Virus record (IMG/VR): IMGVR_UViG_3300029947_000012
Span: 1-46,329 of that record
From: a virus
Direction: 5' to 3' (one strand)
DNA length: 46,329 nucleotides
The notes under the pieces were generated by a model. It searched no databases, was not told the DNA's origin, and was given only the letters and a program-made list of their open reading frames with translations. Positions 3,435-45,335 of the stretch are shown here, piece by piece. Each line of letters begins with the position of its first letter. The stretch's first letter is position 1. Position numbers and translations under genes: made by a program.

Positions 3435-3439
3435 TCGAT

Positions 3440-3579: not shown

Positions 3580-3699
3580 ATGCTGACCATAAAAATACGC
3601 GTGCAGAAAATACTGGACGCGACCCCGGTAGACGCGCTCGTGGCGTCGCTCACGGTCGAAGAGCGCAAGGAACTCGCCCGCAGACTGCTCGGGCTTTAG
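3580..3699 (+). CDS. Hypothetical small protein (39 aa)
   Basis: An AAGGAG RBS lies upstream of the ATG at 3580. Confidence 0.4.
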   Translation: MLTIKIRVQKILDATPVDALVASLTVEERKELARRLLGL

Positions 3700-3717
3700 C
3701 ACGGAAGGAGACAGGCA

Positions 3718-14107: not shown

Positions 14108-14108
14108 G

Positions 14109-23853: not shown

Positions 23854-24362
23854 CGGAAGCCCCCGAGACCGAAATCGTGCTCGGCGAGGGCGTGCGCCTC
23901 GTCCCGGCGACGGACGAACTCCTCGCCGAGGTCGAAGCCGACCTCCGCCCGGGCGACAAGGCGGAACACGACTTCGGCGGCGGCAACCTGCGGCGACCCG
24001 ACCGCCACTCCCCCGTGTGGGCCATCCTGGACGGGGACGATTTGCTGGGCGCGGGCGGCTGGCTGATTCCGGCCGACGGCACGTGGCTCGCCCCCGTCCG
24101 CGTCGCCTGGTTCCTCTCCACCCGCAAGGTCGACACCCGCAAGAAGAAGTTTGTCCGCCTCTCCCCGCGCGTCCTCGCCGCCATGGCTGAAACCCTCCCG
24201 CCCTGGGTGGACAGGATCGTCGTCTGCCCCATGAACCTCTACCCGATGTCCATCAAGTGGCTCAAACGCGTCATGAAAATGCGCGTCCTCTGCGAGAAGA
24301 AGGTGGACGGCGCGATGTTTACGATCTTGATGGCAGACAGAAAGGAACTCGAAAATGTGTGA
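23850..24362 (+). CDS. Hypothetical virion-module protein (possible GNAT-like fold)
   Basis: Overlapping start. It lies between the nozzle gene and the internal virion protein genes. Confidence 0.5.
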   Translation: MTEAPETEIVLGEGVRLVPATDELLAEVEADLRPGDKAEHDFGGGNLRRPDRHSPVWAILDGDDLLGAGGWLIPADGTWLAPVRVAWFLSTRKVDTRKKKFVRLSPRVLAAMAETLPPWVDRIVVCPMNLYPMSIKWLKRVMKMRVLCEKKVDGAMFTILMADRKELENV

Positions 24363-24966
24363 CATGATTTCGGCGACGATGGGAGTCTTGGCCGTCGTGA
24401 GCGCGGTCGCGGGAGGCGTCTCCGCCTACCAAGGGGCGCAGGCGCAGAAAGCCTCCGCGCGCGCCCAGCAGGCGCAGGCGGAAGCCTCCGCACGCGAAGC
24501 CGAACGGCAGGCACAGGTCGAATCCCAACGCGCCGCCATCACGCAGGAGCAGGGGGAGCGCGACGCCGCCAACCGCATGCGACTCCTCTCGCAGGACATC
24601 GGCTCAAACTACGCCAACTTCGCCGGGAACGGACTCCTTGTGGACGGAAACTCCAACGGCACCGTGGCGGACGTTCTCCGCACGACCACGAAGGAAGGTC
24701 TCGCCGACATCGCCACCATCAACGAGAATACGAAGAATAAACTCTGGGAACACCAGAACAACATAGCCTCGCTGCAGGCTTCCGCCGGAAACTACCGCCT
24801 GCAGGGGCAGAACGCCTACTCGGTCGGCACGGCGCAGGCCAACGCGAGCAAGGTCAGCGCGATCGGCTCGACCATCGGCGGTATCGGCTCGGCCGTCGGC
24901 GGCGCGGCCGGAATCCACAACTCCATCGGCGGAAAGACCATCCTCGGCTACAACGTGCCGAAATAA
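24355..24966 (+). CDS. Internal virion / ejection protein candidate (gp14 position)
   Basis: N-terminal TM helix, Q/A-rich coiled coil and G-rich C-terminus. Confidence 0.5.
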   Translation: MCDMISATMGVLAVVSAVAGGVSAYQGAQAQKASARAQQAQAEASAREAERQAQVESQRAAITQEQGERDAANRMRLLSQDIGSNYANFAGNGLLVDGNSNGTVADVLRTTTKEGLADIATINENTKNKLWEHQNNIASLQASAGNYRLQGQNAYSVGTAQANASKVSAIGSTIGGIGSAVGGAAGIHNSIGGKTILGYNVPK

Positions 24967-24978
24967 GGAGGAAGCGCA

Positions 24979-26811
24979 ATGGGCGTCATCAACATCCGCA
25001 TGCGCAGCGAGCGCCTGGACCAAATCGGCGCGATCCGCTCCCCCATGCTCGACACGGGCGCGGCGCAGGCCGCGCAGGGCTACGCCGCCGCCGCGCGGGA
25101 AACCGCACGCGGCATCCGCGGCATCGGCGAAGGCCTCATGGACGTCGCCAAAGCGGGCGCCTGGTGGGTGAACCACGAGCACCAAATCCGCTACGACCGC
25201 GCGCTTTCCGAACTCCGCACCGAATTCAACGACTGGATGAACGGCGACGGCGAGACCCCCGGCAAGATGCAACTCATGGGTTCGGACCCCAAGAAGTGGG
25301 CCGAGGAGTGCAACGACAAGTACCGGGAACTCCTCGACAAGAAACTCAAGGACAACGAAATCACGAGCCACGAGTGGCAGTCCGAGGTCAAGAACGCCGC
25401 CGAACCCTTCCGGGAACAGTGGGCAAACCGCATTTCCCAGACCGCCTTCTCCGCGCAGAAGAAGAACGCCATCACCGCCGCGGACACCAACCTCGAGAGC
25501 CTGTACGCGACGCTCAAGGACGGCGACGGCTCGCCCGAACTCTACAGCCAGTGGGGAGCCGCGGTCGTAAAAAGCCTCGACGCCCGCCAAATCGTGGATC
25601 CCGACGCCCGCGCCGCCATCCTCCGGGCGAACGCCCGCAAGATGTGCGACATCGGCGTGAACAACTTCGTCACCGACACCGAGGCGCAGGCGGACGCCGA
25701 CCCCGACAACGCCGAAAAACTCTGGAAGTCGCGCATCGAGGACCTCAAAAACGCGGACGCCGACGCCTTCTTTCCTCCGAACGCCCGCGTCCCCACCCCG
25801 GACGGCAAGTCCGCCTACAACTTCTGCAAGGACTGGGCGGAAGAAGGCGACATGGAAACCTACCGCAAGGGCGCAATCAAGCAGCTCGAAAACGCCCGCG
25901 ACAAGTGGACGCGCAAACGTCTCTACCAGAAGTCCCTGCAGGAGAGGGAATCGAAGGATGCCTTCCAGAAGGAGGAGGGGGAAATATTCAAAGCTCCCGT
26001 CCCCCAGGACGAGAACGACCAGCCCGCCTACTTCGGGAACATGGCAAACGGCTACTACGCCCTCGCCGACAAGGCGGAAGCGCAGGGGCTCTCCGGACTC
26101 GCCCTCTCCTACCGCAAGACGGCGCAGGCCCTCGCCTTCAAGGAGAACAATGCGCACGACGCGCTCGCCGCGGCGAAGACGAAGGCGGAAGCCGAACGCC
26201 TGAAAGCCCTCCGGGAGCAGAACTACAACACAGCCCTCGCCCAATTCGAAGCGGGTGCCTATTATGACGAGACGAGCGGCAGGTGGGTGGACATCAACCC
26301 GGAAGAACGTTTCGTCCGCGCGAAGCAGATGCTCCAGAGCGGGCTCGTCACCCGTGCGCAGTTCGCCGGACTCTGCAAGGTCGCCAAGCCCGCGCTGGAC
26401 GAGGAAGGTCAGTCCTTCCGAACCTACGTGCTCGACATCGCGGGCAAACTCGTCCCCTCCGCCGTCCACTACAACCCCGGCACCACCCGCTTCGAACTGC
26501 GCCCGACAGCCAAGGTGGACGCCTCCACCCCGCTCCCCGGCGGCGGCGACATGCCCCGCAAGTGGACGGTCAAAAGCGGTCGGCAGGCCGCCACCTACGC
26601 GAACCTCGTCCGCGCCATGAATGTCGCGCTCGAATGGAAGCGCGTCAACAAGAAGAACGTCGAGGAGACGAAAAAGTACTTTGACAATCTCGTCTCGGGC
26701 ACGATGCGCAAGGAACAGCAAGCTACGATCGACGAGAACCTGGACTTTGAAAGCGAGATTGTCAAGGACATGAAGAACATCACGCGCAACACGGGATATA
26801 CGACGCGCTAA
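24979..26811 (+). CDS. Internal virion / ejection protein candidate (gp15 position)
   Basis: AAGGAGG RBS, 610 aa, largely helical composition. Confidence 0.5.
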   Translation: MGVINIRMRSERLDQIGAIRSPMLDTGAAQAAQGYAAAARETARGIRGIGEGLMDVAKAGAWWVNHEHQIRYDRALSELRTEFNDWMNGDGETPGKMQLMGSDPKKWAEECNDKYRELLDKKLKDNEITSHEWQSEVKNAAEPFREQWANRISQTAFSAQKKNAITAADTNLESLYATLKDGDGSPELYSQWGAAVVKSLDARQIVDPDARAAILRANARKMCDIGVNNFVTDTEAQADADPDNAEKLWKSRIEDLKNADADAFFPPNARVPTPDGKSAYNFCKDWAEEGDMETYRKGAIKQLENARDKWTRKRLYQKSLQERESKDAFQKEEGEIFKAPVPQDENDQPAYFGNMANGYYALADKAEAQGLSGLALSYRKTAQALAFKENNAHDALAAAKTKAEAERLKALREQNYNTALAQFEAGAYYDETSGRWVDINPEERFVRAKQMLQSGLVTRAQFAGLCKVAKPALDEEGQSFRTYVLDIAGKLVPSAVHYNPGTTRFELRPTAKVDASTPLPGGGDMPRKWTVKSGRQAATYANLVRAMNVALEWKRVNKKNVEETKKYFDNLVSGTMRKEQQATIDENLDFESEIVKDMKNITRNTGYTTR

Positions 26812-26815
26812 GGAG

Positions 26816-29800
26816 ATGGCAAACATGGAAGAATTCGAAGAGAACGGCAACGAAACCACGGCCAAGGCGTCCAACGGACTCTCCTATCAGGGCTTGTCGC
26901 GCCTCGCGTCCGGAGCCCCCGCACCCGAGACCCCCGCCGCGGGAGACACCCCCGCGACCCCCAAGCGCGACGCCTATCTGGACTTCCTCGACAACCTGCA
27001 GGCGAAACAGAAGTACGCCCGCGGCGTGGAACTCGACCGCGACCTCTACGAATTCTACAACTCCGGGGATGCCAAGGACGAAGAAAAGGCGTTCGCCTTC
27101 TACGACAAGTGGACGCAAGACCGCTTTGGCGTGGGCACGACGCGCGGCGACATCTGGACGCGCGACCGCAAGGGCTTCGACAACGCGCAGCAGTACGGGA
27201 ACGCCCTCTTCGGGCTCTCCCAGCGCGGCTACGCCGCCATCGCCTCGCCCGAATACAAGGCGTGGGAGAAGGCCTGCGCCGCGGGCGACCGCGCCGAAAT
27301 GATGCGACTGGCGGGGATAGACCCCACCGTGACGGAACGCGAGGGAGAAGCCCCCGCCTACACGGTAGGCGCGGCGGGCGCGATCGTCGACAACCGCCCC
27401 CTCGTCTCCCGGCAGAAGACGGACGAGGAGATAGACGAGGAACTGGACGCCCACAACGCGAAGATGAAAAGCGAGAACTGGCTGGGCGCATTCCGCGCCA
27501 TGGACGCGGCGTACCATTTCACGGACGAGGAGAAGGAACTCGTCCGGGCCTCGCTCCGCTCGGGCGACGGTCTCCCGAAGGAATACGAGGACACCTACGC
27601 CGGCATCATCCGCGGCGACGTCTCGCGCGCCGCCGTCCTCAACTATCTCATCGACAACGGCCGTCATGTGGAAAGCCGGTGGTTGCGCGACAACGTCGTC
27701 CTCCCCTTCACATCGGTGGTGAAATCCTTCTGGCAGGGCGCGAAAGACACCTTCGAGGAAGCCTCCCTCTCCCGCGCCTACACTCGGGCGAACTACGAGA
27801 CGGTGCGCTCCTCCTCAGATTCGGCGAAATTCTACTGGAACGACGAGGAAAGAGCCGAGTACAAGCGGCTCCTCGATTCCGGCGAACTCGCCCGCGAAGC
27901 CGAAGCGCGGCACTACGCAAACGCCGATCTCGCCGAAATCGCCAAGGAGCGCGTGGACGCCCAATGCGCCCGCCGTCTCGCCGACGAAGCCAAGCCGCGC
28001 GAACAGTACCTGCGCGAACGCCGCGAACGCCTGTATCTCGAAGACGCCCTTTCCCCCAAGGCGGCGGGCGACTATGGCTGGTTCTCCCGCTCCGTCTCGG
28101 GCGCGATTTCCACCCTCCCCTACATGGTCATGTCCGCCACCCCGGCGGGCTTCGCGTGGAATGTCGCCGCGCAATTCCAGGACGTCCGCAACGACCTCAT
28201 TCTCCGGGGTGAAGACCCCGACAAAGCCCTGTTCTTCCAGGCGTTCTCCGCGACGGCGTGGGCCGCCATAGAGAAAGTCCAGTGGGGCGGGCTTTTCGGC
28301 AAGGAACTCTCCAACCTCGCCAAGAAGCGCCTTCTCGGCAACGTCCTCCAGAAGGCGTGGGGCGCGGGCAAACTGCAGGGCATCGGCACGCTCCTCAAGG
28401 AAGGCGGCAAGGACGTCCTCAAGAAGACCGTGAAGGAATCGCTCGAGGAAGGCATGCAGGGCGGGCTCGAGGGATGGACGCGCGAATACCTCCGCTCCGC
28501 CGACCTCTCCAAGGCGATGGACGCCGCCGTCGGGCAGGCCGCCTCCGACTTCGTCGACTCCCTCGGCGCCATGGGGCTCGTCTCCCTCGCCTCCACGGGC
28601 GCGAAATTCTCCGGCGCCCGGCACGCCGCCGTCGGCATCGACGACCTCGTCGAGGTGGCGCAGGCGAAAATCCACGCGCTCAACACCTACAAGAACACCC
28701 TCTTCGACCCCGAGAAAGGCGCGCCGGACGCCCAACTGAACAAGCAGACCGCCGCCTTCGCCGCGGACTGCCAGTCCATCATGGACGCCCACGTCAAGGA
28801 CGGCTCGGGCGCAATCGCCGCCATGGACGAAATCGCGGCGAAATACGCGCTCGCCCCGAAGGAATCGCAGGCCATCGCCGAGTGGCTCGACCTCCGCCAG
28901 AACGCCATCGGCATGGCCAAGTGGGCGAATTCGGACGCGGCCGCAAACTTCGCCGCCCGCGAACTCGGTGCGCTCCCGATCGGCAACGACACGACATTTG
29001 ACGTGGAGGGCCTCTTCAGGCTCGTGAACCCGAACGCCCGCGTGGAGAGGATGCAGGTCGCCGATACGGCCGCCCCCGCCCCCGAGACGGTGCGACATGT
29101 GAACGCGGACGAGGTCGACGCCCTCGAAGCCCAACTCGCCGGCATGAAAGCCCGTCTCGACGAAATGCCCCAGAACGCCAAGAAGCGGAAAGCCGAACGC
29201 CAGTACGCCGAACGCGCCAAGCGTCTCGCCCGCCTGAAAAACCGCCTCGCCGAGGAGGAGCAGACCGCCCACGACGCCGTCCCCACGAAGGACGTCGTCC
29301 GCGTCACCATCCCCATGGGCGACAAGGGCGAAACGAAGAGCTTCGTGGTCGAAACCTCCTCTGCCGCCCCCGACATCGAATCGCGGGGCTTTGCCGCCTC
29401 CGTCTCCGAAGCCATGCGCGGCGCAATCGGCGAGGACGGCGTCGTGGACGGCGGCACGCTCACGGATGAGCAGTTCGCCGCCCTCCCCATCGCGCAAAAG
29501 GCGAATGTCGCCGTCACCGAAAATCAGTACCTCGCCATGTCCGAGGAGGACAAAGCCGCCTACCTCGAGATGAACAGCCTCAAGGAAGGCGGCGACTTCC
29601 GCATCCTGGACGGCGAAGGCAAGGTCGTATACAATGCGGATGCGCTCGTCACGCTCAAGCGTGCGCTCAACGCCCCCTCCCCCTTCACGCGCGTCGGCGG
29701 CAACTCCACCCTCGCGCACGAGTATTCCCACGCCATCTCCCGCTTTGCCCGCGACCTCGGGCTTGTCTCCGGGGAAGACGCCAAGACCATGTCCGCCCTC

Positions 29801-32800
29801 TTCGGCGCGCCCCGCAAGGGCGTGGACGAACTCTGGGACGAGGAAGCCGTGGGCGACGGGTTCGTGGACTTCCTCCGCGGCAAGTACGACTTCCGCCGCC
29901 TGACGGAAGAGGAACGCCGCGCGGCCATGGGCTTCTTCGAGCGCATCTGGGACGCCATCAAATCCGTCTTCCGCCTGAACGGCATGTCCGCCCCCGTGAC
30001 GCAACACGACCGCAACCGGCGCGAACAGGCGCGCGAGACGGCGTTTGAAGCCATCCAGCGCGGCGACTTCGCGGGACTCTCCCAGTATGCGGGCATCAAA
30101 TTCGACGATGACGCGTCCGCCCCCGAGAAGAAGGAGCCGGCAAAGACGGAAGAAAAGCCGCAGGAAGCGAAGGCGGAGGAGAAGAAGACGTCCGAGGAAA
30201 CGCCGCCCCCGCAGAAGGAAGCGAAGCCCGAGGAGATGTCCGAGGAGAAGCCCGCCCGAGAAACCGACGCGTCCGTGGACGCCGACCGCCTGCAGGAGGG
30301 GCTGGACAAAGTCTCCTCCTCCCCGCGCGAAGCCGAAGCGTCCACCCCGCGCCGCGTCGACCTCAAGCGCACCATCTTCACCCCCGACTACTCCATGAAG
30401 GTGGAGACGGAAACCCTGTGGGCCCCCCTCGCCGACCTCGTCGAATCCACCGACGACCGCACCGTGCAGATGCGCGACCGCTCCCGCGTCGCCACCGACA
30501 TGCAGGTGCTGGAGAAAACCCGCAAAGGCACGTTCCAGCCCCTCGCGCTCTTCCCCGGCACGAAGTCCGACGACGGCGCGCCCATCGTCGGCGGCGGTCT
30601 CCGCATCGTCTCCGGGCACGGCCGCAAGCGCATGCTTGAGACACTCGCCCGCGAAGGCCGCTACAGCGAATACCTGGACGCCATAAACGAAGAATGCCGC
30701 AAGCAGGGCATTCCCTCGTCTCCCGCCGGGATGAAGAACCCTGTCCTCGTTTCCCGCATCACGGGTGGGCTCAAGAACCACGCCGATCTCGCCCGCTTCG
30801 CCGAACGCTCAAACCGTTGGGGCGGACTCGAGCGCTCCGGCGCGGAATACGCCGAATCGGACGCCCGCGCCATCACCCCCGCCCTGATGCGCCTCTACGC
30901 GCCGGACGCGAACGGCAATCTCCTCGCCGCCTCCAACCGCGAATTCATGGGCGCGTTCCTCGACGCCGTGGGCGCGACGGGGCTTACGAACGCCGACGGC
31001 ACCCCCACCCCGGAAGCCGCCCTGCGCGTCCGACGCGCCCTCATGACCGCCCTCTTCGGCGACGACGAACGCGTCCGCTCCATGGTGCGCAACCTCCTCG
31101 AAAAGGGAGACGAACTCTCCACGGGCACGCTCCTCAACGCCCTCATGAAGTCCGCCGGACGCCTCCTCGCCCTCAAGGACGGACGCGCCTCCTACGACAT
31201 CGTCCCGGACGTGCGCGAAGCCGCCCTGCAGTATATCGCCTGGCGCGTGGAAGCCCGCCGCAACCCGCGGCTCACCCTCTCCGACCACCTCGCGCAGACC
31301 GACCTCTTCTCCGCGTCCGCGACCCCCGTACAGCAGGCTCTCGCCCGCCTCCTCGAGAACGGACGCTTCGGCGCGGCCATAGACCGCTACGCCGAACTCG
31401 CCGCCAAGCAGGCCGTGGACGCGCAGACCGCGCTCCCGGGCTTCGCGCCCGCAACCCCGCTCCAACTCCTCTCTCGCGCCGAGCGCGACACGACCCCGAA
31501 GAACCCGGACGGCTCCCCCGTCGCACCCTACGTCACCCCCGACCCCGAATCGGAGCAGGCAAAAACCCCCGTGCAGACGCCGCCCGCCGTGCAGGAAGCC
31601 CCCAAGCCCGCCCCCATCCTCGAGAAAAAGACGGAAAATGCGGCTGTGGAAGCCGCGAAGGCCATTCTCGCGCCCAAGGCGAAAGAGACGCCGTTCGTGC
31701 CCGTCCCCTTCGTGCGCGGCACGGCGACCTTGCCTCAGCCCGGTGCGCCCGCCATCGTCAACCCAAAGACCGGCAAGCCCCTCAAGACGGGCGCCTACAA
31801 CCTCCTCCGCGGCGCGTACGAGACGGCCGAACGCCCCACGCCCTCCGCCCAGGACAAGAGTGGACGCGGACTCGGAATCTTCAATCCGCCCAAGGCGACG
31901 GACGCCAAAGGCCGATATTGGGGCGACATCTTCCCGCATTTCCAAGGCAACAAGACCGAGATGGCCGACCGCGTCTCGCAGGCCCTCCGCGTCAACATGA
32001 CGCGACAGGAGCGCGACCACTACAAGACCGTCGTGGACTATTTCGGCGGCGGCGGGTGCTGGGGACTCTACAACGCGCTCACCAACTTCGATAACGCCGA
32101 CCGGCTCGTCGTGAATGAATACGACCCCGACCGTCTCGCCAAAATCCGCCTCCTCCACGAGGTCGACGGCAAGGTGGCGGACATTGCCGAGAGCCTCCTC
32201 TTCCGCGAAGGCAACATGGAACGCCTGGTCGAGGATATGCGTGGAAGCAGAAAGACCCCGCTGACGAATTCGCCCAACGTCCTCGCCTCGCACGCCGAGT
32301 CGCTATTCTGGGAGGAAGTCAAGGACGCGAACGACCGCGCGGCCTTCATGGCGTTCCTCGATTGCGCCCACACCATGCTCTCCTCCTCCGACCAAGGCAA
32401 GTCCGACCCGGCAAGCCGCACCCGCGCCTACTACGACATCGGCGTCCGCAAAGCGCTGGACGCCGTCCGGGCGGACGGCAAGCGGGCGAAGGAAGCCGCC
32501 GACGCCTTCAAGGCACGCGGGGGAACGATAGACTACCGCGCGGGCGACGCCGCCAATTGGCCCGACGCCCCGCACGGGGACGAGGTCGTCGCCGTCTTCG
32601 ACCCGCCCTACTACCGCACGATGGGCTACGACGGCTCGTCCGTCCCCCTCGACGCCGCCGGACGCGGCTGGGACTACAAGACAACCGCCGCCACCCTCCG
32701 CCGCCTGGTTGACGCGGGCGACGCGATAGTGTATACTGATGAGGCGTGGTGGTTGACGGGAGGATACTCGGCGGACGAAGGCGCGGCGGAACAGTTGTCG

Positions 32801-35800
32801 CTGTTCGACGACATCAAGCCCGTGTTCGCCGAGGAGAACGACCTCCTCCTGGGCATCATCAACAACTTCGACCACTTTGACGTCGCCGGCGCGGTCGACG
32901 GGCGCCAAGAGACACTGGGAGTGCAGCATGGACACAAAACTGACGAAAGAACAGAAAGCGGCGCGGGTGGCGATTCTGCTGAGCCTGCGCGAACCGCTGA
33001 CGGACGGGGAACTGGATCTCATACAGGGGCCGTCCAGCCTGTGGACGCAGGCGATGCGGGACAAAGTCGGCCCACTCGTGCGCCTGGCGGAAGCGGAGGA
33101 CGCGCGGGCGGAGAACCCACCGCCGGAGAACGCGCCCTCGCAAGAGCCGTAATCGCCGACGACATCGCCCGACACTCCGTCTCCCGCCTCTACACGGGTA
33201 GCGCGGCGGACTACGACCAGCCCTCCCTCCGCGCCGTCGGTACGGGAGTGGGAAGGCAGGCATTCGGCTGGGGATTGTACGCGAGCAAAAATCGCGCCGT
33301 CGCGGAGAACCACGCCACGCGTGAACAGAACAGAAAATCCATGCCGGGCGAAGCCGGTGCAAACGCGCATGTCTACGAGCAGACGTGGTTCACCGACCGT
33401 CCCGAAGGCGACGAAAGCCGCCTCCTCGAGTGGGACGAGGTTATATCCGCGGAAATCCTCGCGCGCATCGAGAAGCAGTCGGACGCCGAAGGCATAGGAC
33501 AGGAGGTGCGCGACGCGCTGCGCTTCGGGAACGGATATGAAGGTGACAACGTCTATGACGACCTGCGCGATCAAGTCTTTGCGGGCGACGCGAAAGCGAC
33601 CTCGGAGTTTCTCGCCCGCGCGGGCATCGACGGCATGAAATACCCCGCCGCCCCACGCGGCTGGAACTACATCTCGTTCCGCGACGACAACATGCGCATC
33701 GATCACCACTGGGTAGACGGCGAGCAACGCTACTCCGTCCAGCGCGTGACGCCAGAGGAAGACGCCGCCTACATGGACGCCGTGCGCCGCGGCGACACGG
33801 AGACGGCCCAGCGCATGGTGCGCGAGGCCGCGAAACGCGCCATGCCGAATACGCAGGTCGTCGGGGAGGACGGACTGCCCCGCATCGTCTACCACGCCAC
33901 GGACGAGGACTTTACGCGATTCGACCGCACGAAACTCGGCAAGGCGACCGAAGCCAACAGCGGCAACGTGGACATGGCTAAAATCGGCTTCTGGTTCAAC
34001 GACAACGACCTGTCCGGGAAGGTCGCGACGAACCCCGCGAAGACGAAAGCGGTGTTTCTCGACCTGGAAAATCCGGCACGCGCCACCTTTGACGAACTCT
34101 GGGACGGAGCCCGTGACGAGAACGCGGACGGCTACATCGTGGAGGATACGGAACTCGGCGGCATGTCCTATGTCGCGCTCGACCCCGCGCAAATCAAGTC
34201 CGCGGAGCCTGTGACCTACGACGACGCCGGGCGCATCATCCCGCTCTCCGAACGGTTCGACCCCGCCGACCCCGACATCCGCCACTCCGTCCGCCGCGAC
34301 CCGTGGCATTCCGTCCAATACGGATACGCGCAGGCGGCCGGATACAGCGAGGACGCGCATCTCTCCCCGGAAGATAAGCAGGCGACCGACTATGCTCTCG
34401 ACGCGCTGATCGAGAAACACCATTCCGGCTCGGAGCGCTTCGGCAATGACGTCATGCTCGCCAATATGTACCCGCCAGACTGGGCGGAACGCCCTGTGGT
34501 CAAGTTCGCCCTGCAGTTCGTTGGCAACGACGGGGCTCTGCGGGATATTCGGAAAGCCTTCTTCCTTCGCAACGGGTGGCGGACGAACGACAAAGAAGGA
34601 TGGCTGCGATACAATGCCCCCGCAAAAGCCGCAGTACTTGAAAAGGACTACTCGCCCAAGGAACTGCAGGAGAAGAAGAATCGCTTCCAGACGCTTCTCG
34701 ATGCTGAGAGGGAAGTGGCGAAGAAGCGCAGTGCACTTCAAAAGAAACTGGGGTACCCCGCGTACAAGGACAGCGAGGAGTGGTCGCGCCTGTCTGCCGA
34801 AGAGCAACGCCTGAAGGCGGAACGATTGTCCCCAGACAAGAGGCACGCGGATGCGGAAGCAGACTATCAAAAGACGAAAGCCGAATGGGAACGGTCCAAG
34901 GACGCTAAATATGAGGAGTGGCGGAACGAGCGCGTCGCCCGAGGGAACGCAATGCTCGACGAAGTGGCAAGGGAGCACGGCAAGAAGACGCTGGGCGAAT
35001 TCATCGCCGAAGGCAGAACGCAGCCCGAACGCCACAGCGTCCGCCGCGGACGCCGCGAGGACGCCGTGCCCGCGCTCGACATAGCGACCGGCTACCTCGC
35101 CCGCCGCCTCCTCGGCGGCAAGACGATAACCCCGCAGCAGGCGAAGGACATCCTCGGCAATCTCGGATTTGTCCAGGAAAACCCCGCCGAAGTCCTCCGC
35201 CGGGCGCAATCCGCCGCCGACACCGTGCGCGAACGCGTCAAGGACGCCGGGGAACGCGCGGATTCCGAACTCTACCGCTACCTCTCGCAAGCCTCCATGA
35301 CGGGTCGCATGCAGGAAGCCATGGATCGCGCCATCACGGGCGCGGCGCAGGCCGCAGACCCCGAGATCGGCCGCCGCCTCGAGCGCGCAATCTCCTCCAA
35401 ACGCACGCGCGACCTCGAAGCGGCCAACGGCTTCACCGCCGCCGAAATGATGGCCGAACTCCCCATCTCGCTGACGGACGCGTTCCTCTCGGTCGCCGAA
35501 TTCGAGCGCACACCCGAGGAGAAAGCGCGACTGGAAGCCGAACGCGCCAACCGCGCGGAGGAGGAGAAGACGGACGGCAAGACGGACGAGGAACTCCTCG
35601 CCGAGGTTGACGACGGCGAAGTCACCGACCCGACGCCCGAGCAGGTCGCCGCATTCGACGAACTGATGGGACGCGCCCGCTACGCCGAAGACGCCCGCAA
35701 GCGCAAGGAGGCGATAGACATCGCCGCCCGCGCGAAGGCGAAGGCGGAGGCAGGCGAGGAAGCCCAGTCCGAGGACGCCGGGAGCGGAGAGGATGAGGAC

Positions 35801-38674
35801 GCCATCGGCGGCATTCCCCTCGCCCGCATTCGCCGCATCGCGCCCGTCTTCGAGGACCAGAACCTGTTTGCCGCGTTTCTGATCGAATGGACGGCGCAGA
35901 AGATCGTCCAGAAGCACCCCGAACTGACCAACAACCGCGACCTGTGGAAATCCCCCGTCGCCATCCGCGAACTGAAGCAGACCGCGACGCACATTCTGCG
36001 CCGCCTCGCCGCGGACATCCTCGGAAGTCCCACGGGTAGCCACGCGCGGAACTTCGCCGACCACATCATCAACGAACTGGAATCGGACGCGACCTGCCGC
36101 ACCTACAAAGCCGTGCGCCGCAAAATCGCCTATGTCTACGACGCCATCCACACGGACGGCCTGCGCCAGTCCCGCAAGGAATTGATGCACCGCCTGACGG
36201 ACGGGTGGCGCGAGAAAGGACCGGACGGCAAGTACATCGTCCACCCGGGCATCCGGCAGTTGGTTGGTGCGAAGGGACGGTTCAGCGCGACCACCGAGGA
36301 AGGCAAGCGCAAGATTGACGGCCGCACCGAAATGTACGGCCGCACCCTCCTGCGCGTCCTGGCCATGTCGGACGAGGAACTGCAGGCCCGCGACGCCGAG
36401 CTGCGCGAGATAACCGACATCAACCCCACGGCGACAGGCGACGCGGGCGCGAAAGCGACCGAAGAGAAGGTGCGCGAAGCCGCCGCCGAACGCGCCATCA
36501 TCGCCGCGTACGGTGGGCTCGCCCGCCGCCTGCCGGGCGAAATCCGCGACGCGACCGAGCGTATCCTCGCCGATCTGCAAGGAAAGCGGCAGGCGTTCGA
36601 GGCCCGCCGCGAAGCCGAGAAGGCGGAGAACGACAAGGTCAAGGCCGCGCTCGTCGAGGCTATGTCCGATACACCCGCCCCCAGGAGGACGAAGCCGAAG
36701 GGCCGCGCGGAGAAGTACATCGAATCGTTTGTGGGCAACATCGGTCTCGAAATGCGCAATCTGATACGCTACTGCAAGGACGGCAAGAAACGGGACGCCG
36801 CGCAGGACGTCATTACGGACACCGAGGCCGCCCTGTCCGAGGCGACCGGCAAGTACCGCGCGACCAAGATGGGGCACGAAATCGCCATCAACGCCGCGCT
36901 GAAAGCCTGCTACGGAAACGCCGCGGACGGCGTCCGGCACCTGACCGCCGAGCCCGTGCCGGAGGAAGTTGCCCGTGCCGTCTTCGGACAGGACGCCGCC
37001 ATGACCCCGACCTACGGCAACCTGTTGCAACTCTATGCGTCAATCGTCCAGGCGGACTACAAGGCAAACGCGGAAAAGCACGGACGCCTCGCGCAACTGC
37101 CCATGATTCGCGCCGCGCTGACGGACGCCGACATGCGCTTCTACGCGTTCGCGCTGGGCTGGTACCGCGACAATCGCGCCGCCCTGTCGGACGCAGTGGA
37201 AGCCGTGACCGGCGTTCCGGTCGTATCTCCCGACCCGCTGTACGTGCCTGTCCGCGTCGCCCGCCCCGTGGAGGGATTGTCTGCGGACGTCGTCGCGTGG
37301 TCCCCCATTCCGCGCGCCCTGTCCCTCCGCGTCCCGCACGGCTGGGACTTTGACGAACACGCCAACTTCTTCCGCCTACTGGACGAGCAGGCGGAAATGC
37401 ACGCACAGACGGTCGCCTACGCCAAACTGGGCATCCGCCTGCGCGATACATGGGCGTCGCGCGAGGTTCAGGACGCCGCCCGTCGCAATGTCGGGTCGGA
37501 CGACATGATGGCCGTCACAGGGCACATGCGCGACGTCCTCGCGCAGGACGCCGCCCGCCCGGAGGATACGCGCATCCTGTCGGCAATCAACTACGCACGC
37601 GCATGGATTGCCCGCTTCGCGATCAGCGGCAACTTGTCGTCCGCAATGTCCCAGCCCGCATCCATCCCGGTGTGGGCCAACATCATGCTGGGCCACGAGG
37701 CGGTCGGATTCCGCCGCCTAGCCCGGTACATGCTGCACGTGGACGCGGACGCCGTGCGCGACCTCGTCCAGTCCGACGGCTACCGCGCCCGCTATTTGAT
37801 GGGCTGGACCGAGGACGTGCAAAACGCCATCCTGCACCCGTCCAAATCGCGCATCATGTCCACGGTCGAAACGGCCTACGACAAAGGCATGGCGCTGTCC
37901 AAGGTCGCCGACAAGGGCGCGTCCTTGTGGATTGCGCAGGGCTTCTATCGCGACGCCCGCGACATGTTCATCCGGCGCGGGGATACGGACGCGGACGCCA
38001 AACGCAAGGCCATCGCCCTGACATGGGCGGCCGTCGAGGCCAGTCAGCAGACAGGGCGGTCGGAATACCTTAACCGCCTACAGCGTGGCAATGGCGCGGT
38101 GTCCAAAATCCTGTTCCAATTCCGGACGGCCCAGTTGCTGTCCAACAACTACCTGATACAGGCCGTGCGCGATGTGCGTGCCGGGGGCGACCCCGCCGCC
38201 AAAGGACGCCTGTTGCGGGCCGTGGCGATTAACACCATTATCGTCCCGGCGTATCTGACGCTCGTTCGCGCGGCATGGGACGCGATTCTGGGCGACCCCC
38301 CGCCGGAAACCGAAGACGTGGAAGTCCCCGAGCAGGTGCGCGAGTTCCTCTGGAACGCGATTGACAACAACACCGCCCCGCTGTTCTTCGTCTCGGCGGT
38401 TGCCTCGGCCGGCGCGAAACCCCTGCTGGGGCTGGACACCTACGGCGCGTCCAGTGGCATGCCCGCCGTGGACAGCACCATCCGCATCGGACAGCACGCG
38501 GGCAGGGCATTGGCGGACGCGTCCCGCTACATCGTCAACCTGTGCACGGCGGACGACATCGCGGACGAAGTTACGGCCGAAAAACTGATAGCGGACGTGC
38601 TGCGTTTGGGACGCGACATCGCCGCGCCTGTACGGCACGCCGCGCGGGCATACGACAACTACATGGGGGATTGA
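26816..38674 (+). CDS. Giant (3,952-codon) polyvalent internal virion/ejection protein
   Basis: One uninterrupted ORF with coding bias almost throughout. It contains HExxH, ParB-like, Dam-like MTase and ART-like motifs plus a hydrophobic C-terminal core. The in-frame ATG at 26825 has better RBS spacing than the one at 26816. Confidence 0.85.
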   Translation: MANMEEFEENGNETTAKASNGLSYQGLSRLASGAPAPETPAAGDTPATPKRDAYLDFLDNLQAKQKYARGVELDRDLYEFYNSGDAKDEEKAFAFYDKWTQDRFGVGTTRGDIWTRDRKGFDNAQQYGNALFGLSQRGYAAIASPEYKAWEKACAAGDRAEMMRLAGIDPTVTEREGEAPAYTVGAAGAIVDNRPLVSRQKTDEEIDEELDAHNAKMKSENWLGAFRAMDAAYHFTDEEKELVRASLRSGDGLPKEYEDTYAGIIRGDVSRAAVLNYLIDNGRHVESRWLRDNVVLPFTSVVKSFWQGAKDTFEEASLSRAYTRANYETVRSSSDSAKFYWNDEERAEYKRLLDSGELAREAEARHYANADLAEIAKERVDAQCARRLADEAKPREQYLRERRERLYLEDALSPKAAGDYGWFSRSVSGAISTLPYMVMSATPAGFAWNVAAQFQDVRNDLILRGEDPDKALFFQAFSATAWAAIEKVQWGGLFGKELSNLAKKRLLGNVLQKAWGAGKLQGIGTLLKEGGKDVLKKTVKESLEEGMQGGLEGWTREYLRSADLSKAMDAAVGQAASDFVDSLGAMGLVSLASTGAKFSGARHAAVGIDDLVEVAQAKIHALNTYKNTLFDPEKGAPDAQLNKQTAAFAADCQSIMDAHVKDGSGAIAAMDEIAAKYALAPKESQAIAEWLDLRQNAIGMAKWANSDAAANFAARELGALPIGNDTTFDVEGLFRLVNPNARVERMQVADTAAPAPETVRHVNADEVDALEAQLAGMKARLDEMPQNAKKRKAERQYAERAKRLARLKNRLAEEEQTAHDAVPTKDVVRVTIPMGDKGETKSFVVETSSAAPDIESRGFAASVSEAMRGAIGEDGVVDGGTLTDEQFAALPIAQKANVAVTENQYLAMSEEDKAAYLEMNSLKEGGDFRILDGEGKVVYNADALVTLKRALNAPSPFTRVGGNSTLAHEYSHAISRFARDLGLVSGEDAKTMSALFGAPRKGVDELWDEEAVGDGFVDFLRGKYDFRRLTEEERRAAMGFFERIWDAIKSVFRLNGMSAPVTQHDRNRREQARETAFEAIQRGDFAGLSQYAGIKFDDDASAPEKKEPAKTEEKPQEAKAEEKKTSEETPPPQKEAKPEEMSEEKPARETDASVDADRLQEGLDKVSSSPREAEASTPRRVDLKRTIFTPDYSMKVETETLWAPLADLVESTDDRTVQMRDRSRVATDMQVLEKTRKGTFQPLALFPGTKSDDGAPIVGGGLRIVSGHGRKRMLETLAREGRYSEYLDAINEECRKQGIPSSPAGMKNPVLVSRITGGLKNHADLARFAERSNRWGGLERSGAEYAESDARAITPALMRLYAPDANGNLLAASNREFMGAFLDAVGATGLTNADGTPTPEAALRVRRALMTALFGDDERVRSMVRNLLEKGDELSTGTLLNALMKSAGRLLALKDGRASYDIVPDVREAALQYIAWRVEARRNPRLTLSDHLAQTDLFSASATPVQQALARLLENGRFGAAIDRYAELAAKQAVDAQTALPGFAPATPLQLLSRAERDTTPKNPDGSPVAPYVTPDPESEQAKTPVQTPPAVQEAPKPAPILEKKTENAAVEAAKAILAPKAKETPFVPVPFVRGTATLPQPGAPAIVNPKTGKPLKTGAYNLLRGAYETAERPTPSAQDKSGRGLGIFNPPKATDAKGRYWGDIFPHFQGNKTEMADRVSQALRVNMTRQERDHYKTVVDYFGGGGCWGLYNALTNFDNADRLVVNEYDPDRLAKIRLLHEVDGKVADIAESLLFREGNMERLVEDMRGSRKTPLTNSPNVLASHAESLFWEEVKDANDRAAFMAFLDCAHTMLSSSDQGKSDPASRTRAYYDIGVRKALDAVRADGKRAKEAADAFKARGGTIDYRAGDAANWPDAPHGDEVVAVFDPPYYRTMGYDGSSVPLDAAGRGWDYKTTAATLRRLVDAGDAIVYTDEAWWLTGGYSADEGAAEQLSLFDDIKPVFAEENDLLLGIINNFDHFDVAGAVDGRQETLGVQHGHKTDERTESGAGGDSAEPARTADGRGTGSHTGAVQPVDAGDAGQSRPTRAPGGSGGRAGGEPTAGERALARAVIADDIARHSVSRLYTGSAADYDQPSLRAVGTGVGRQAFGWGLYASKNRAVAENHATREQNRKSMPGEAGANAHVYEQTWFTDRPEGDESRLLEWDEVISAEILARIEKQSDAEGIGQEVRDALRFGNGYEGDNVYDDLRDQVFAGDAKATSEFLARAGIDGMKYPAAPRGWNYISFRDDNMRIDHHWVDGEQRYSVQRVTPEEDAAYMDAVRRGDTETAQRMVREAAKRAMPNTQVVGEDGLPRIVYHATDEDFTRFDRTKLGKATEANSGNVDMAKIGFWFNDNDLSGKVATNPAKTKAVFLDLENPARATFDELWDGARDENADGYIVEDTELGGMSYVALDPAQIKSAEPVTYDDAGRIIPLSERFDPADPDIRHSVRRDPWHSVQYGYAQAAGYSEDAHLSPEDKQATDYALDALIEKHHSGSERFGNDVMLANMYPPDWAERPVVKFALQFVGNDGALRDIRKAFFLRNGWRTNDKEGWLRYNAPAKAAVLEKDYSPKELQEKKNRFQTLLDAEREVAKKRSALQKKLGYPAYKDSEEWSRLSAEEQRLKAERLSPDKRHADAEADYQKTKAEWERSKDAKYEEWRNERVARGNAMLDEVAREHGKKTLGEFIAEGRTQPERHSVRRGRREDAVPALDIATGYLARRLLGGKTITPQQAKDILGNLGFVQENPAEVLRRAQSAADTVRERVKDAGERADSELYRYLSQASMTGRMQEAMDRAITGAAQAADPEIGRRLERAISSKRTRDLEAANGFTAAEMMAELPISLTDAFLSVAEFERTPEEKARLEAERANRAEEEKTDGKTDEELLAEVDDGEVTDPTPEQVAAFDELMGRARYAEDARKRKEAIDIAARAKAKAEAGEEAQSEDAGSGEDEDAIGGIPLARIRRIAPVFEDQNLFAAFLIEWTAQKIVQKHPELTNNRDLWKSPVAIRELKQTATHILRRLAADILGSPTGSHARNFADHIINELESDATCRTYKAVRRKIAYVYDAIHTDGLRQSRKELMHRLTDGWREKGPDGKYIVHPGIRQLVGAKGRFSATTEEGKRKIDGRTEMYGRTLLRVLAMSDEELQARDAELREITDINPTATGDAGAKATEEKVREAAAERAIIAAYGGLARRLPGEIRDATERILADLQGKRQAFEARREAEKAENDKVKAALVEAMSDTPAPRRTKPKGRAEKYIESFVGNIGLEMRNLIRYCKDGKKRDAAQDVITDTEAALSEATGKYRATKMGHEIAINAALKACYGNAADGVRHLTAEPVPEEVARAVFGQDAAMTPTYGNLLQLYASIVQADYKANAEKHGRLAQLPMIRAALTDADMRFYAFALGWYRDNRAALSDAVEAVTGVPVVSPDPLYVPVRVARPVEGLSADVVAWSPIPRALSLRVPHGWDFDEHANFFRLLDEQAEMHAQTVAYAKLGIRLRDTWASREVQDAARRNVGSDDMMAVTGHMRDVLAQDAARPEDTRILSAINYARAWIARFAISGNLSSAMSQPASIPVWANIMLGHEAVGFRRLARYMLHVDADAVRDLVQSDGYRARYLMGWTEDVQNAILHPSKSRIMSTVETAYDKGMALSKVADKGASLWIAQGFYRDARDMFIRRGDTDADAKRKAIALTWAAVEASQQTGRSEYLNRLQRGNGAVSKILFQFRTAQLLSNNYLIQAVRDVRAGGDPAAKGRLLRAVAINTIIVPAYLTLVRAAWDAILGDPPPETEDVEVPEQVREFLWNAIDNNTAPLFFVSAVASAGAKPLLGLDTYGASSGMPAVDSTIRIGQHAGRALADASRYIVNLCTADDIADEVTAEKLIADVLRLGRDIAAPVRHAARAYDNYMGD
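29717..29731 (+). other. HExxH zincin motif (HEYSH) within the giant protein
   Basis: The context is TLAHEYSHAISRF, with acidic WDEEAV downstream. Confidence 0.5.
30350..31260 (+). other. ParB/sulfiredoxin-like domain region of the giant protein
   Basis: APIVGGGLRIVSGHGRKRMLETL (GHGRKR at 30614..30631) fits the ParB-type PiV...G.gR motif. Confidence 0.5.
31870..32926 (+). other. Dam-like (D12 class) N6-adenine DNA methyltransferase domain of the giant protein
   Basis: Motifs seen: FGGGG (32042..32056), NEYDP and DPPY (32600..32611). The ending VDGRQETLGV resembles stand-alone Dam C-termini. Confidence 0.7.
32709..32737 (+). promoter_or_regulatory. Internal sigma70-like promoter candidate TTGACG-17-TATACT inside the giant gene
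   Basis: The hexamers and spacer length are identical to the early promoter at 39270..39298. TATACT is rare in this high-GC genome. Confidence 0.5.
32928..33152 (+). CDS. Nested 74-codon ORF in the +1 frame of the giant gene (hypothetical small protein)
   Basis: The ATG lies 6 nt after GGGAG. By hand count, GC3 is about 80% in this frame against about 45% in the host frame. The TAA stop falls exactly where host-frame codon bias resumes. Confidence 0.4.
   Translation: MDTKLTKEQKAARVAILLSLREPLTDGELDLIQGPSSLWTQAMRDKVGPLVRLAEAEDARAENPPPENAPSQEP
33746..34297 (+). other. ADP-ribosyltransferase-like (ART-PolyVal-type) domain of the giant protein
   Basis: The motif order RIVYHAT..F..F, IGFWF, DGYIVED and DPAQIKSAEP...DPDIRHSV matches the pattern I recall for ART domains of polyvalent proteins. 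Confidence 0.45.
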
Positions 38675-40887: not shown

Positions 40888-41955
40888 TCAGCGTGCAGAA
40901 TTGACGGCGTGCAGCATTTCGGCAAGGCGGACGGAGTGGTCGTAGTGTTCCGCCATAGCGAGGTTCGTCCACCCACCCAGGCGCCTGGCAATATCGTCGG
41001 AGACGCCAGCCTCGGCAAGACGGGTGCGGAAGGTGTGCCGCCAGGAGTGGAAGGGGTACCGTTCCGCGTCCAATCCGGCGGAAGCGAGAACGGCGGAGAA
41101 CGGAACGGGCATCGGCTTGGGGTAGCACATTGCGTGCTCCGGGAGAACAAACCCCTCCTGGACGGGGCGGGACTGCAGCGCGGCGAGGAGTTCGTCCGCG
41201 ATCGGCAGGAGAAGGTGCACCCCGTGCTTGGCGGTTTTGGACGGCGTGATGGCGATCGTGCGCCGCGCAAGGTCGATCTGCCCCCAGTCCAGTCGGGCGA
41301 CATCCCCATAACGAAGGCCCGTCCAGCGGGAGAGAATCGAGGCAAGTAGCCAGTCGTGGCCCTTATCCCGGCAGGAGGCGAGAACGCGCCGCTCCTCGTC
41401 AGGGGAGAACGCCTCGCGCCGGACGGACGAGCCGTCGTTGTCGGGGGATACAGCCTTCCACGGATTGTGTACGCCGGGGCGCAGCTGTCCGACGGCCTCC
41501 CACATCTGGGAGAGATACCCGCAGTAGGTGCGTTGGGTCTTGTTCGCGCGCCCGAGGGAGGCGACGAATTCGCGCGCGAGGGCGACCGAAACATCCCCCA
41601 TGTCGTAGGCCCCGCGCTTTTTCGCCCAGGAGACGAAGCGGGCGAGAAGGTTTTTGCGGTTCGTGTAGGTCGTGCGGGCGACCTTCCTCCCCTTCCCTTG
41701 ACACCAATCGTCGTAGATCTGCCACACCGACCCGAGGGGCAGACCCGCGTCCGGCGCACCCGCGCCATAGATGGCGGCGAGAATACCCTCGACGGCGGAA
41801 CGTTTGGGGCGGGCGGAAAACGCCAGGCGGAAGGCATTCCACGCGGCGAGGGCCTGCGCTTTCTGCTCCTTCCGGAAGCCCGTGCTGACCACTTTCCGCA
41901 CGCGGCTCGTGCGATACTCCATCCACCAGACATTACCTCTCAGAAACAACGCCAT
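40888..41955 (-). CDS. int: Tyrosine recombinase / phage integrase
   Basis: Motifs seen: GLRYGDVARL (catalytic-type Arg box), HSWRHTF (HxxR) and LAMAEHYDH (catalytic Tyr). AAAGGAGAA RBS. attP is adjacent. Confidence 0.9.
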   Translation of the reverse strand: MALFLRGNVWWMEYRTSRVRKVVSTGFRKEQKAQALAAWNAFRLAFSARPKRSAVEGILAAIYGAGAPDAGLPLGSVWQIYDDWCQGKGRKVARTTYTNRKNLLARFVSWAKKRGAYDMGDVSVALAREFVASLGRANKTQRTYCGYLSQMWEAVGQLRPGVHNPWKAVSPDNDGSSVRREAFSPDEERRVLASCRDKGHDWLLASILSRWTGLRYGDVARLDWGQIDLARRTIAITPSKTAKHGVHLLLPIADELLAALQSRPVQEGFVLPEHAMCYPKPMPVPFSAVLASAGLDAERYPFHSWRHTFRTRLAEAGVSDDIARRLGGWTNLAMAEHYDHSVRLAEMLHAVNSAR

Positions 41956-44516: not shown

Positions 44517-45335
44517 ATGACGAACGCACTACTGCGCGTGATGCCGGAGGCGGAATATCACGCGGAAACAAAGAGCGGGACAAAACTCTCGAGCCACATG
44601 CTGATGGAGTTTATCCACTGCCCGCTCACCTACCACCAGAAACTGACGGGGGAGATCGCTGACGAGCAGACCGACGCCATGTTCATCGGCTCGGCCGCGC
44701 ACTGTTTGATCCTGCAGGGCGACGCGGCATTCAACGCCGCGTACATGATCGCCGAGGGCCCGGTCAACCCCAAGACGGGGACGCCGTATGGGCGGATGAC
44801 AAAGGCCTACAAGGACTGGCTCGCCGTCCAACCGCACCCGGTTGTGACGCCCAACGACTACGCGGTCATCGCGCAGACGCGCCAGGCGATCTGGCGGCAC
44901 AATGATGCCGCGTCCATCCTCTCGCAGGGGCTTGCGGAGCGCGTCGTGGACTTCGCGATCGAGGGCGAACCTTGCCACGCCCGGTTTGATTGGATCGACC
45001 CCGAGCGGGAGATTCTCGCCGACCTCAAAACTTGCGCGGACTTGGACGGATTCACCCGCGAGGCCATCAACCGAGACTACATCCTGCAACTGGCGTTCTA
45101 CCTCCGCGCGGCCCGCGCGGCCGGGATCGCGATCGGACACGCCTATCTGATCGCCGCCGAGAAGAAAGCCCCCTACCGCGTCGCCGTCTACGAGGTCGAG
45201 AAAGGCTCGCTCGATCGGGCGGACACGCGCATTGTCGAGGGGGTCAAGGACCTCCGCGCGGCCCGCGAGGCGGGCGAATGGAAAACGGGCTATGAGGGTG
45301 TTTGCCCGCTTGCCTATCCCCCGCACATGGCTTAA
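44517..45335 (+). CDS. PD-(D/E)XK exonuclease (RecE/YqaJ-type recombination exonuclease)
   Basis: The core ARFDWIDPEREILADLKT (D...D/E-x-K) is present. The gene is paired with an ERF-type annealase downstream. Confidence 0.65.
   Translation: MTNALLRVMPEAEYHAETKSGTKLSSHMLMEFIHCPLTYHQKLTGEIADEQTDAMFIGSAAHCLILQGDAAFNAAYMIAEGPVNPKTGTPYGRMTKAYKDWLAVQPHPVVTPNDYAVIAQTRQAIWRHNDAASILSQGLAERVVDFAIEGEPCHARFDWIDPEREILADLKTCADLDGFTREAINRDYILQLAFYLRAARAAGIAIGHAYLIAAEKKAPYRVAVYEVEKGSLDRADTRIVEGVKDLRAAREAGEWKTGYEGVCPLAYPPHMA

Follow-up and report, generated by a model that had tools for sequence, protein, structure and literature searches.

Background

A framework for polyvalent proteins was set out by Iyer, Burroughs, Anand, de Souza and Aravind in 2017 (PMC5512222), in which processing by zincins is proposed to be a general theme and DdrB-type ParB domains are described as characteristic of packaged proteins. 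DdrB of phage P1, a member of the Dar antirestriction system, is found in a processed form packaged in the P1 head (PMC5512222). Here we describe a protein of this kind from a metagenomic phage, IMG/VR virus record IMGVR_UViG_3300029947_000012, of which a stretch of 46,329 nucleotides (nt) was analysed and is referred to below as the window. The protein is encoded on the + strand by an open reading frame (ORF) at 26816..38674, by far the longest in the window, and is hereafter called the giant protein.

Gp50 of phage N4 is a very large podovirus virion RNA polymerase, which is packaged in the capsid and ejected. In Lessievirus, a group of temperate and GC-rich podoviruses, JC1 gp69 (4,515 amino acids, aa) and its closest homologue Bcep22 gp75 span 4,515-4,602 aa and carry the annotation "DarB-like antirestriction protein"; gp69 closes the morphogenesis module, takes up 22% of the genome and is associated with the virion according to mass spectrometry (PMC9144972). 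In phage phi24B, gp47 (2,811 aa) forms part of the virion proteome and is a proposed ejection protein; it features the domains LPD5, LPD1, LPD38 and MuF-C (bioRxiv 10.64898/2026.04.10.717836).

An initial annotation of the window, made from the sequence without database searches, had described a single ORF of 3,952 codons in the gene position of T7 gp16, combining polyvalent enzyme cargo with an ejection-protein core. The ORF is sound: it starts with ATG, has 3,952 codons and a stop, and translates without internal stops. All nine peptide motifs quoted at that time are found where they had been placed, namely HEYSH at residue 968 (nt 29717), IVSGHGRKRML at 1264, FGGGG at 1743, NEYDP at 1767, DPPY at 1929, GTGVGRQAFGWGLY at 2142, RIVYHAT at 2356, QIKSAEP at 2459 and DIRHSV at 2487. 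The claims on composition hold as well, and comprise a K/E/P-rich linker, hydrophobic helices near the C-terminus and K/E-rich stretches, the latter at residues 2601-2700 and 2901-3000.

Results and discussion

Enzyme modules of the giant protein

The giant protein belongs to the already described class of phage polyvalent proteins. At least two domains of disparate biochemical activity are combined in one chain, signature families of the class are present, and the gene is one of a group of late, virion genes in a phage with portal and terminase. The segment-wise profile searches proposed along with the initial annotation gave two significant domain matches, ddrB-ParB and ART-PolyVal, and the relatives of the protein add LPD23, MuF_C, PBECR5 and Pribosyltran, so that the suggested class membership is supported. 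Regarding its role, we consider it probable that the giant protein is a virion-internal polyvalent effector, occupying the gp16 slot of a temperate podovirus and expelled with the DNA; packaging and injection are proposed by analogy with JC1 gp69 and phi24B gp47. In comparison to the class as described (PMC5512222), the hub domains DdrB-ParB and ART are matched here by Pfam and the N6-adenine methylase by fold only, whereas the hub domain MPTase-PolyVal is not detectable and the N- and C-terminal pieces have no counterpart among catalogued domains.

The ParB-like segment is recognised by the Pfam family ddrB-ParB (PF18763) at residues 1205-1315 with an E-value of 6e-15 and 55.9 bits, the curated cut-off being 27.6, and the module also matches phrog_5143 and phrog_2299. 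In tblastn, this segment and the roughly 200 residues after it proved homologous to P1 DdrB (E 1e-18) and P7 Prt (E 5e-17), with 29% identity over about 300 aa. The initial annotation had cited P1 DarB as the classic example of a packaged protein of the class, but the P1 matches land on ddrB and not on darB. A helicase or ATPase domain, as in the DarB-type methylase-helicase dyad, did not appear in Pfam and NCBIfam scans of the protein or in a Pfam scan of its relatives. No part of the giant protein has a characterised homologue other than P1 DdrB, and the two proteins differ in several respects: DdrB has 995 aa, belongs to a myovirus and carries its metallopeptidase C-terminal to the ParB domain, while in the giant protein the ParB is an internal module and a region with an HExxH motif, which shows no similarity to the DdrB metallopeptidase in hhalign, lies N-terminal to it.

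The ADP-ribosyltransferase (ART)-like domain likewise found support, with a match to ART-PolyVal (PF18760) at an E-value of 1.4e-11 and 45.7 bits, over the curated cut-off of 31.2. It contains the histidine motif VYHAT as well as QIKSA, a motif conserved in the family.

The Dam-like N6-adenine methyltransferase, in turn, is borne out at the level of fold. The AlphaFold2 (AF2) model of the module has a predicted local distance difference test score (pLDDT) of 82.4 and a predicted TM-score of 0.84, and in a Foldseek search of the PDB, ranks 1-16, 18 and 20 are taken by Mcbe1, E. coli Dam, DpnM and T4 Dam (probability 0.96-1.00, E 4e-4 to 5e-2). The S-adenosylmethionine-binding FxGxG precedes the catalytic DPPY, which is the order of the alpha class. 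In ten relatives with 31-57% identity, the lysine of FQGNK, the F-G-G-x-G motif (F1743) and the D-P-P-Y-Y motif (D1929) are invariant. Based on the model and on these residues, we accept a Dam-like predicted fold with its active-site signature. The module shares with the Dam family (E. coli Dam, T4 Dam, DpnM, Mcbe1) the fold and the motif order GNK, F-G-G-x-G, D-P-P-Y, and differs from it in the low identity (11-16%), in a helical insert of about 100 residues and in being embedded in a 3,952-aa protein. A profile search of the PDB gave the adenine methyltransferase 7m6b as its best match (E 0.12), over the DPPYY segment; matches to ribosomal protein L2, obtained with phmmer when the methyltransferase segment alone was searched against the PDB, were dismissed as spurious. 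One distant relative, P0038, holds an embedded methyltransferase module in its giant protein, and its contig has in addition a stand-alone MethyltransfD12 (PF02086) gene 2.5 kb further downstream (L014 22836-23678, - strand).

Two further modules flank the ADP-ribosyltransferase. Module X is conserved in six relatives and gives signals from the ART clan, all of which are below threshold (DUF3990, E 0.0014; ART-PolyVal, E 0.0075 in relatives); as such, its interpretation as a second ADP-ribosyltransferase was set aside. Module Y has no match in Pfam, NCBIfam or PHROG.

A family with conserved ends and an exchangeable middle

An exhaustive phmmer search retrieved 35 relatives, most of them 3,000-5,642 aa long. 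In family alignments, the N-terminal ~1,100 aa and the C-terminal ~1,200 aa are common, the ParB module is usually kept and the middle is variable. Among 12 members, the middle contains ddrB-ParB in ten, ART-PolyVal in eight (best E 3e-33), LPD23 in six, MuF_C in three, Pribosyltran in two, and PBECR5 and DUF6782 in one each. Other searches recovered little. A megablast of the 12-27 kb part of the window against 50,697 phage records gave no matches, and neither the N-terminal 1,140 aa nor the C-terminal 953 aa had any when compared with the phage collection by tblastn, while tblastn of the middle region matched phages at ParB-DdrB only. The whole protein found no match in the PDB with phmmer, and a word-indexed search of 5.8 billion proteins yielded seven relatives for the C-terminal core only and none for the N-terminus.

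These relatives bear directly on whether the ORF is an artefact, either of a chimeric assembly or of genes fused by sequencing errors. The extreme length, the mosaic content and a genome with 63-68% GC, which yields long spurious ORFs, would all suit such an origin. Against it, full-length relatives of 3,000-5,642 aa show the same part order in independent assemblies from different samples, which also speaks against the chimeric assembly considered in the initial annotation; one close relative, P0016, and an IMG/VR contig are 97-99% identical across the shared parts; and the G+C content at third codon positions (GC3) is high in frame throughout, ranging from 0.72 to 0.87 along the whole length of the gene. 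The genome is, moreover, self-closing, since positions 1-97 of the window are identical to positions 46233-46329, and the 97-nt identical ends therefore indicate a complete genome of about 46.2 kb, which either closes into a circle or is terminally redundant and of which the giant gene makes up about 26%. On the basis of GC3, of the two Pfam domains over curated thresholds and of the full-length relatives in independent assemblies, a chance ORF in high-GC DNA was ruled out, and we regard an artefact of any kind as extremely unlikely. Within the gene, GC3 falls to 0.72-0.80 in the methyltransferase, X and Y modules, against 0.85-0.87 in the conserved ends.

The annotated start of the gene is probably 9 nt too early. 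A ribosome-binding site, AAGGAG at 26810-26815, directly touches the first ATG (26816) and is normally spaced from the ATG at 26825, and P0016, which is 98-99% identical, begins at this second methionine; for these reasons the likelier product has 3,949 aa.

A short motif, R-[HFY]-S-[VILFM], recurs at the borders of the modules and is referred to here as the junction. The giant protein contains four copies where 0.2 would be expected, and 21 family members together contain 75 copies against 5.5 expected, nearly all of them within 28-78% of the protein length. The motif opens modules of unrelated type as well as the C-terminal core. It is absent from the remaining ~9,100 aa of the phage proteome, and the idea that it represents a prohead-protease site common to other virion proteins was consequently rejected. 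Bcep22 gp75, P1 DdrB and T7 gp16 show no enrichment of the motif, and term searches of PMC5512222 did not find it.

The variable region is a cassette array, and relatives differ by modules gained, lost and swapped at the junctions. Where shared, P0016 and the giant protein are 98% identical; P0016 is without residues 1601-2072, which hold the methyltransferase, and carries at junction 2 an insertion of 583 residues that comprises two ART-like modules. In six other relatives (P0008, P0010 and P0012-P0015), residues 2311-2738, i.e. the ART and Y modules from junction 2 to junction 4, are swapped for about 410 unrelated residues. Long DNA repeats were discarded as drivers of the exchange, the only repeat being the 19 nt which encode the junction itself. 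The pair of 98%-identical phages, differing by whole modules only (the methyltransferase lost, two ART-like modules gained), amounts to a natural experiment, and the junction and its cassettes are the part of this system most worth pursuing.

Cargo modules of a further kind, with an HE-x-QH motif and the motif GEVEARNA, occur in nine relatives (P0003, P0004, P0007, P0018, P0019, P0021, P0023, P0026 and P0027) and have the look of another metallopeptidase. They are not present in the giant protein and are unrelated to its N-terminal HExxH region beyond the motif, an hhalign comparison of the two giving 19 columns at 19% probability.

Conserved ends and the HExxH region

The N-terminal scaffold has no match in Pfam, PHROG or NCBIfam, and the C-terminal core none in Pfam, PHROG or a PDB profile search. 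In the AF2 model of residues 1-1140 (mean pLDDT 69), the scaffold is predicted to be helical. Near the C-terminus, two hydrophobic helices reach Kyte-Doolittle means of 1.81 and 1.42 over 19 residues, the only windows of the protein at or above 1.2, and the segment is kept in the family consensus.

The zincin motif HEYSH, which the initial annotation had singled out, stands as a motif and is invariant in relatives, whereas no peptidase profile or fold match could be obtained for it. In an alignment of 17 relatives, whose identity goes down to about 25%, only seven columns are invariant, of which four are H968, E969, H972 and one Glu of (N/D)EE at residues 1008-1010; F996 and G997 are also invariant. 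The sequence thus contains an HExxH motif with a Glu downstream as potential ligand, as is expected of zincins. In the AF2 model, residues 830-1030 (pLDDT 85-96) form a predicted beta-sheet, followed by the HExxH helix (963-980) and by a helix (1009-1025) which opens on the Glu pair. No Pfam peptidase matched the region in the giant protein or in the 17 relatives even at E-values up to 1, a profile search of the PDB was without match, and Foldseek searches of the PDB and BFVD with the N-terminal 1,140-aa model gave no significant fold match for it. The region was not assigned to MPTase-PolyVal (PF18818), as profile, hhalign, PDB and Foldseek tests were all negative. Taken as a whole, it is rather likely to be a metallopeptidase, and what speaks for a zincin is the invariance in relatives.

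A candidate peptidase at this position and a repeated motif between modules raise the possibility of a self-processing polyprotein, in which an HExxH...E peptidase of no described family would cut the R-[HFY]-S-[VILFM] junctions. The cleavage would free the enzyme modules as separate effectors, either in the capsid or after ejection. We put this forward tentatively, as an idea with the odds against it. The junction may also act as a universal connector, through which cassettes could be added, dropped or swapped while the N- and C-terminal delivery pieces are left undisturbed.

Gene neighbourhood and comparison with known giants

On the + strand, the large terminase, a T7-type portal (PF12236), a protease-like gene and a GP7-type capsid protein are followed by two collagen-repeat fibre genes, a gp11-like tubular protein, the nozzle, a gp13-like gene, T7_gp14, a 610-aa gene and finally the giant gene. 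The gp16 position assigned to the latter in the initial annotation is therefore corroborated, as the nozzle (PF25675), gp13-like (PHROG) and T7_gp14 (PF24072) genes precede it and the order is kept in relatives. In the 46.5-kb Hadza gut contig of P0017, whose N-terminus is 48% identical to that of the giant protein, the order is nozzle, 169 aa, T7_gp14, 614 aa, giant (3,500 aa), 165 aa and integrase. In the far more distant P0029 and P0038, a gene of 642-722 aa and then the giant close the same operon; the counterparts of the 610-aa gene in relatives, at the same place, have 614-722 aa. The giant gene starts 5 nt past the stop of the 610-aa gene, and the next gene begins 2 nt past the giant's own stop. 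Given the presence of a tyrosine integrase, the phage is temperate. RecE-like exonuclease and ERF single-strand annealing protein genes are located at 44517-45335 (+) and 45384-46118 (+), and a T7-like RNA polymerase was not found in the window, despite the T7-type portal, nozzle and gp14 genes.

The "ejection-protein core" of the initial annotation did not hold up as homology, since similarity to gp14, gp15 or gp16 was absent in PHROG, hhalign and PDB profile searches (in hhalign, the probability was at most 1%, but this test is insensitive, since it misses even the window's own gp13- and gp14-like genes). The term therefore rests on gene position and on the C-terminal hydrophobic hairpin. 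The giant protein resembles T7 gp16 in its gene position and in being large and mostly helical, with a membrane-active role presumed from the hairpin; unlike gp16, it is three times longer, is without a lytic transglycosylase domain and carries enzyme cargo which gp16 lacks.

As in Bcep22 and JC1, where virion proteins with lengths of about 200 and 510-530 aa come before it, the giant is the last large morphogenesis gene. Sequence similarity to Bcep22 gp75 was considered and rejected, with no BLASTP match at E 1e-3; gp75 has one junction copy against 0.27 expected. While the Bcep22/JC1 family is annotated as DarB-like, the methylase of the giant protein is Dam-like and a helicase domain was not detected. 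phi24B gp47 and N4 gp50 have other domain content and no sequence similarity to the giant protein (tblastn, phage collection). Bcep22 gp75, JC1 gp69 and phi24B gp47 are analogous and not homologous to it. The class and its experimental precedents, i.e. the DarB-like giants of Bcep22/JC1 and phi24B gp47, are already known; particular to the present protein are the unmatched N- and C-terminal chassis, the invariant HExxH outside known peptidase families, a methylase which is Dam-like and not of DarB type, and a junction motif with documented cassette turnover. It adds a rare lineage to the polyvalent, injected-effector proteins of phages, with at least one relative from a human gut metagenome.

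Proposed role

Under the role which we consider probable, the giant protein would be made late and enter the capsid alongside the gp14-like and 610-aa proteins, to be expelled ahead of the DNA or with it. The conserved N-terminal ~1,100 aa and C-terminal ~1,210 aa probably serve for incorporation into the capsid core and for passage or channel formation at ejection, with the hydrophobic hairpin having a role in envelope passage. The payload between them, consisting of ParB-DdrB, the Dam-like methyltransferase, X, ART-PolyVal and Y, could then act prior to any phage gene expression: the methylase and ParB-DdrB would shield the incoming DNA from restriction or handle it, and the ADP-ribosyltransferase would modify host proteins. 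In this scheme, ejection, the activities of the enzymes and their targets, and proteolytic processing, if there is any, are predicted from the domain content and from the analogous giants. If packaging is true, the conserved ends represent a delivery chassis and the junction a site of cargo exchange, which would aid the understanding of counter-defence turnover and the engineering of protein-delivering phages.

Several results weigh against this role. The ART match spans only positions 2-67 of the 140 of the profile, that is, its first half. The methyltransferase module has no match in Pfam (PF02086) or NCBIfam, and its TM-scores to Dam are 0.4-0.54, with a target-normalised maximum of 0.54. 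The N-terminal 1,140-aa model is without a significant Foldseek match in the PDB or BFVD, the N- and C-terminal pieces have no similarity to T7 gp14, gp15, gp16 or any internal-virion family of PHROG, and Pfam and NCBIfam scans of the giant protein revealed no SLT or lysozyme family (lytic transglycosylase). Finally, module fragments are found in bacterial contigs, and some copies therefore exist outside intact phages.

A mainly structural equivalent of gp16, building core and channel and carrying inactive relic modules with no effector role, would agree with the conserved gene position, with the N- and C-terminal pieces being the conserved parts of the family, and with a half-length ART match and a methyltransferase too divergent for Pfam. 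It is difficult to reconcile with the invariance of F-G-G-x-G, D-P-P-Y-Y and the G-N-K lysine at 31-57% identity, with ParB and ART matches over curated thresholds, and with a module turnover between 98%-identical phages so fast as to denote selected payloads and not decaying relics; we deem it quite unlikely.

The giant protein might instead be produced late or from the prophage, remain unpackaged and act in the producing or lysogenic cell, for example in superinfection exclusion, in host takeover or in the modification of DNA before packaging. A Dam-like methylase could equally modify progeny DNA at that stage, the gene is near the integrase end of the genome, and module fragments persist in bacterial chromosomes. 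However, the translational contiguity with the genes in gp13, gp14 and gp15 position (5 nt before, 2 nt after), the gene order kept in distant relatives, the detection of analogous giants in virions by mass spectrometry (PMC9144972; bioRxiv 10.64898/2026.04.10.717836) and the association of DdrB-type ParB domains with packaged proteins (PMC5512222) argue for packaging, and an exclusively intracellular protein appears unlikely to us. A virion-internal effector remains the preferred reading.

The family fragments in bacterial contigs lie directly beside housekeeping genes (L001 2633-6397, L002 627-2897 and L003 268-2538). They contain either ParB and methyltransferase only, or module X and an alternative cassette, ending without the C-terminal core, and may be prophage remnants or domesticated pieces.

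Features of the window

The features of the giant gene and of its neighbourhood are collected in Table 1.

Table 1 Modules of the giant protein and neighbouring genes, with positions in the window
Feature	Residues	Position (nt)	Strand	Basis or remark
Gene like T7 tail tubular protein A (gp11)		20066..21754	+	phrog_394, E 3e-18
Nozzle gene (tail tubular protein B, gp12-like)		21295..23853 (start = maximal ORF)	+	phrog_376, E 8e-73; Phage_nozzle PF25675, E 5e-13
gp13-like internal virion protein		23850..24362 (start approximate)	+	phrog_308, E 1e-9
T7 gp14-family internal virion protein		24355..24966	+	T7_gp14 PF24072, E 3e-12, over cut-off; phrog_418, phrog_805
610-aa protein, gp15 position		24979..26811	+	No homology found by PHROG, Pfam, hhalign
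Giant ORF		26816..38674	+	3,952 codons and stop; probable true start ATG 26825
Conserved N-terminal scaffold	1-823	26816..29284	+	Nearly all helical; common to 35 proteins (exhaustive phmmer)
HExxH region, candidate zincin-like metallopeptidase	824-1095	29285..30100; HEYSH 29717-29731	+	Invariance, AF2 topology
K/E/P-rich low-complexity linker	1100-1200	30113..30415	+	Per 100 residues: 33 K+E, 11 P
DdrB-type ParB module and helical region after it	1205-1621	30428..31678	+	Pfam PF18763; P1 DdrB homology
Dam-like (D12-class) N6-adenine DNA methyltransferase module with large helical insert (by predicted fold)	1690-2015	31883..32860	+	Motifs, AF2, Foldseek
Module X with GTGVGRQAFGWGLY	2119-2308	33170..33739	+	phrog_873 positions 1051-1207 of 1277, E 2e-7
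Junction motif 1, RHSV	2119-2122	33170..33181	+	Motif count
Junction motif 2, RYSV	2305-2308	33728..33739	+	Site of the 583-aa insertion of P0016
ART-PolyVal ADP-ribosyltransferase module	2309-2492	33740..34291	+	Pfam match at residues 2351-2424
Junction motif 3, RHSV	2489-2492	34280..34291	+	Motif count
Module Y	2493-2738	34292..35029	+	K/E-rich coiled segment; GC3 0.72, lowest of the gene
Conserved C-terminal core	2739-3952	35030..38671	+	In all full-length family members
Junction motif 4, RHSV	2739-2742	35030..35041	+	Start of C-terminal core; R2739 invariant in family alignments
Hydrophobic helix pair	3799-3826 and 3855-3873	38210..38434	+	Acidic, proline-rich loop between; candidate membrane-inserting hairpin
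Tyrosine integrase		40888..41955	-	PF00589, E 2e-17

Two long antisense ORFs are located within the giant gene, at 27815-30781 (-; 988 aa) and 32303-37030 (-; 1,575 aa); such ORFs are common in GC-rich coding DNA. Several palindromes are rarer in the window than expected under a Markov model, with ratios of 0.21 for CTAG, 0.35 for AGCT, 0.46 for ACGT, 0.56 for GGCC and 0.64 for GATC, and this under-representation may reflect restriction avoidance. The depletion of GATC is mild only, despite the Dam-like module. An assignment of the host from the labels of metagenome-assembled genomes was abandoned, as Kiritimatiellia, Vampirovibrio and "bacterium" conflict and such labels are unreliable for phage contigs. 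In the two adjoining tail-fibre genes (12107-15764), short repeat regions match many collagen-like and tail-fibre PHROGs. The best-conserved non-structural gene of the window is the ORF at 86-919, which matches phrog_7964 (E 1e-93) and phrog_5070 (E 8e-84).

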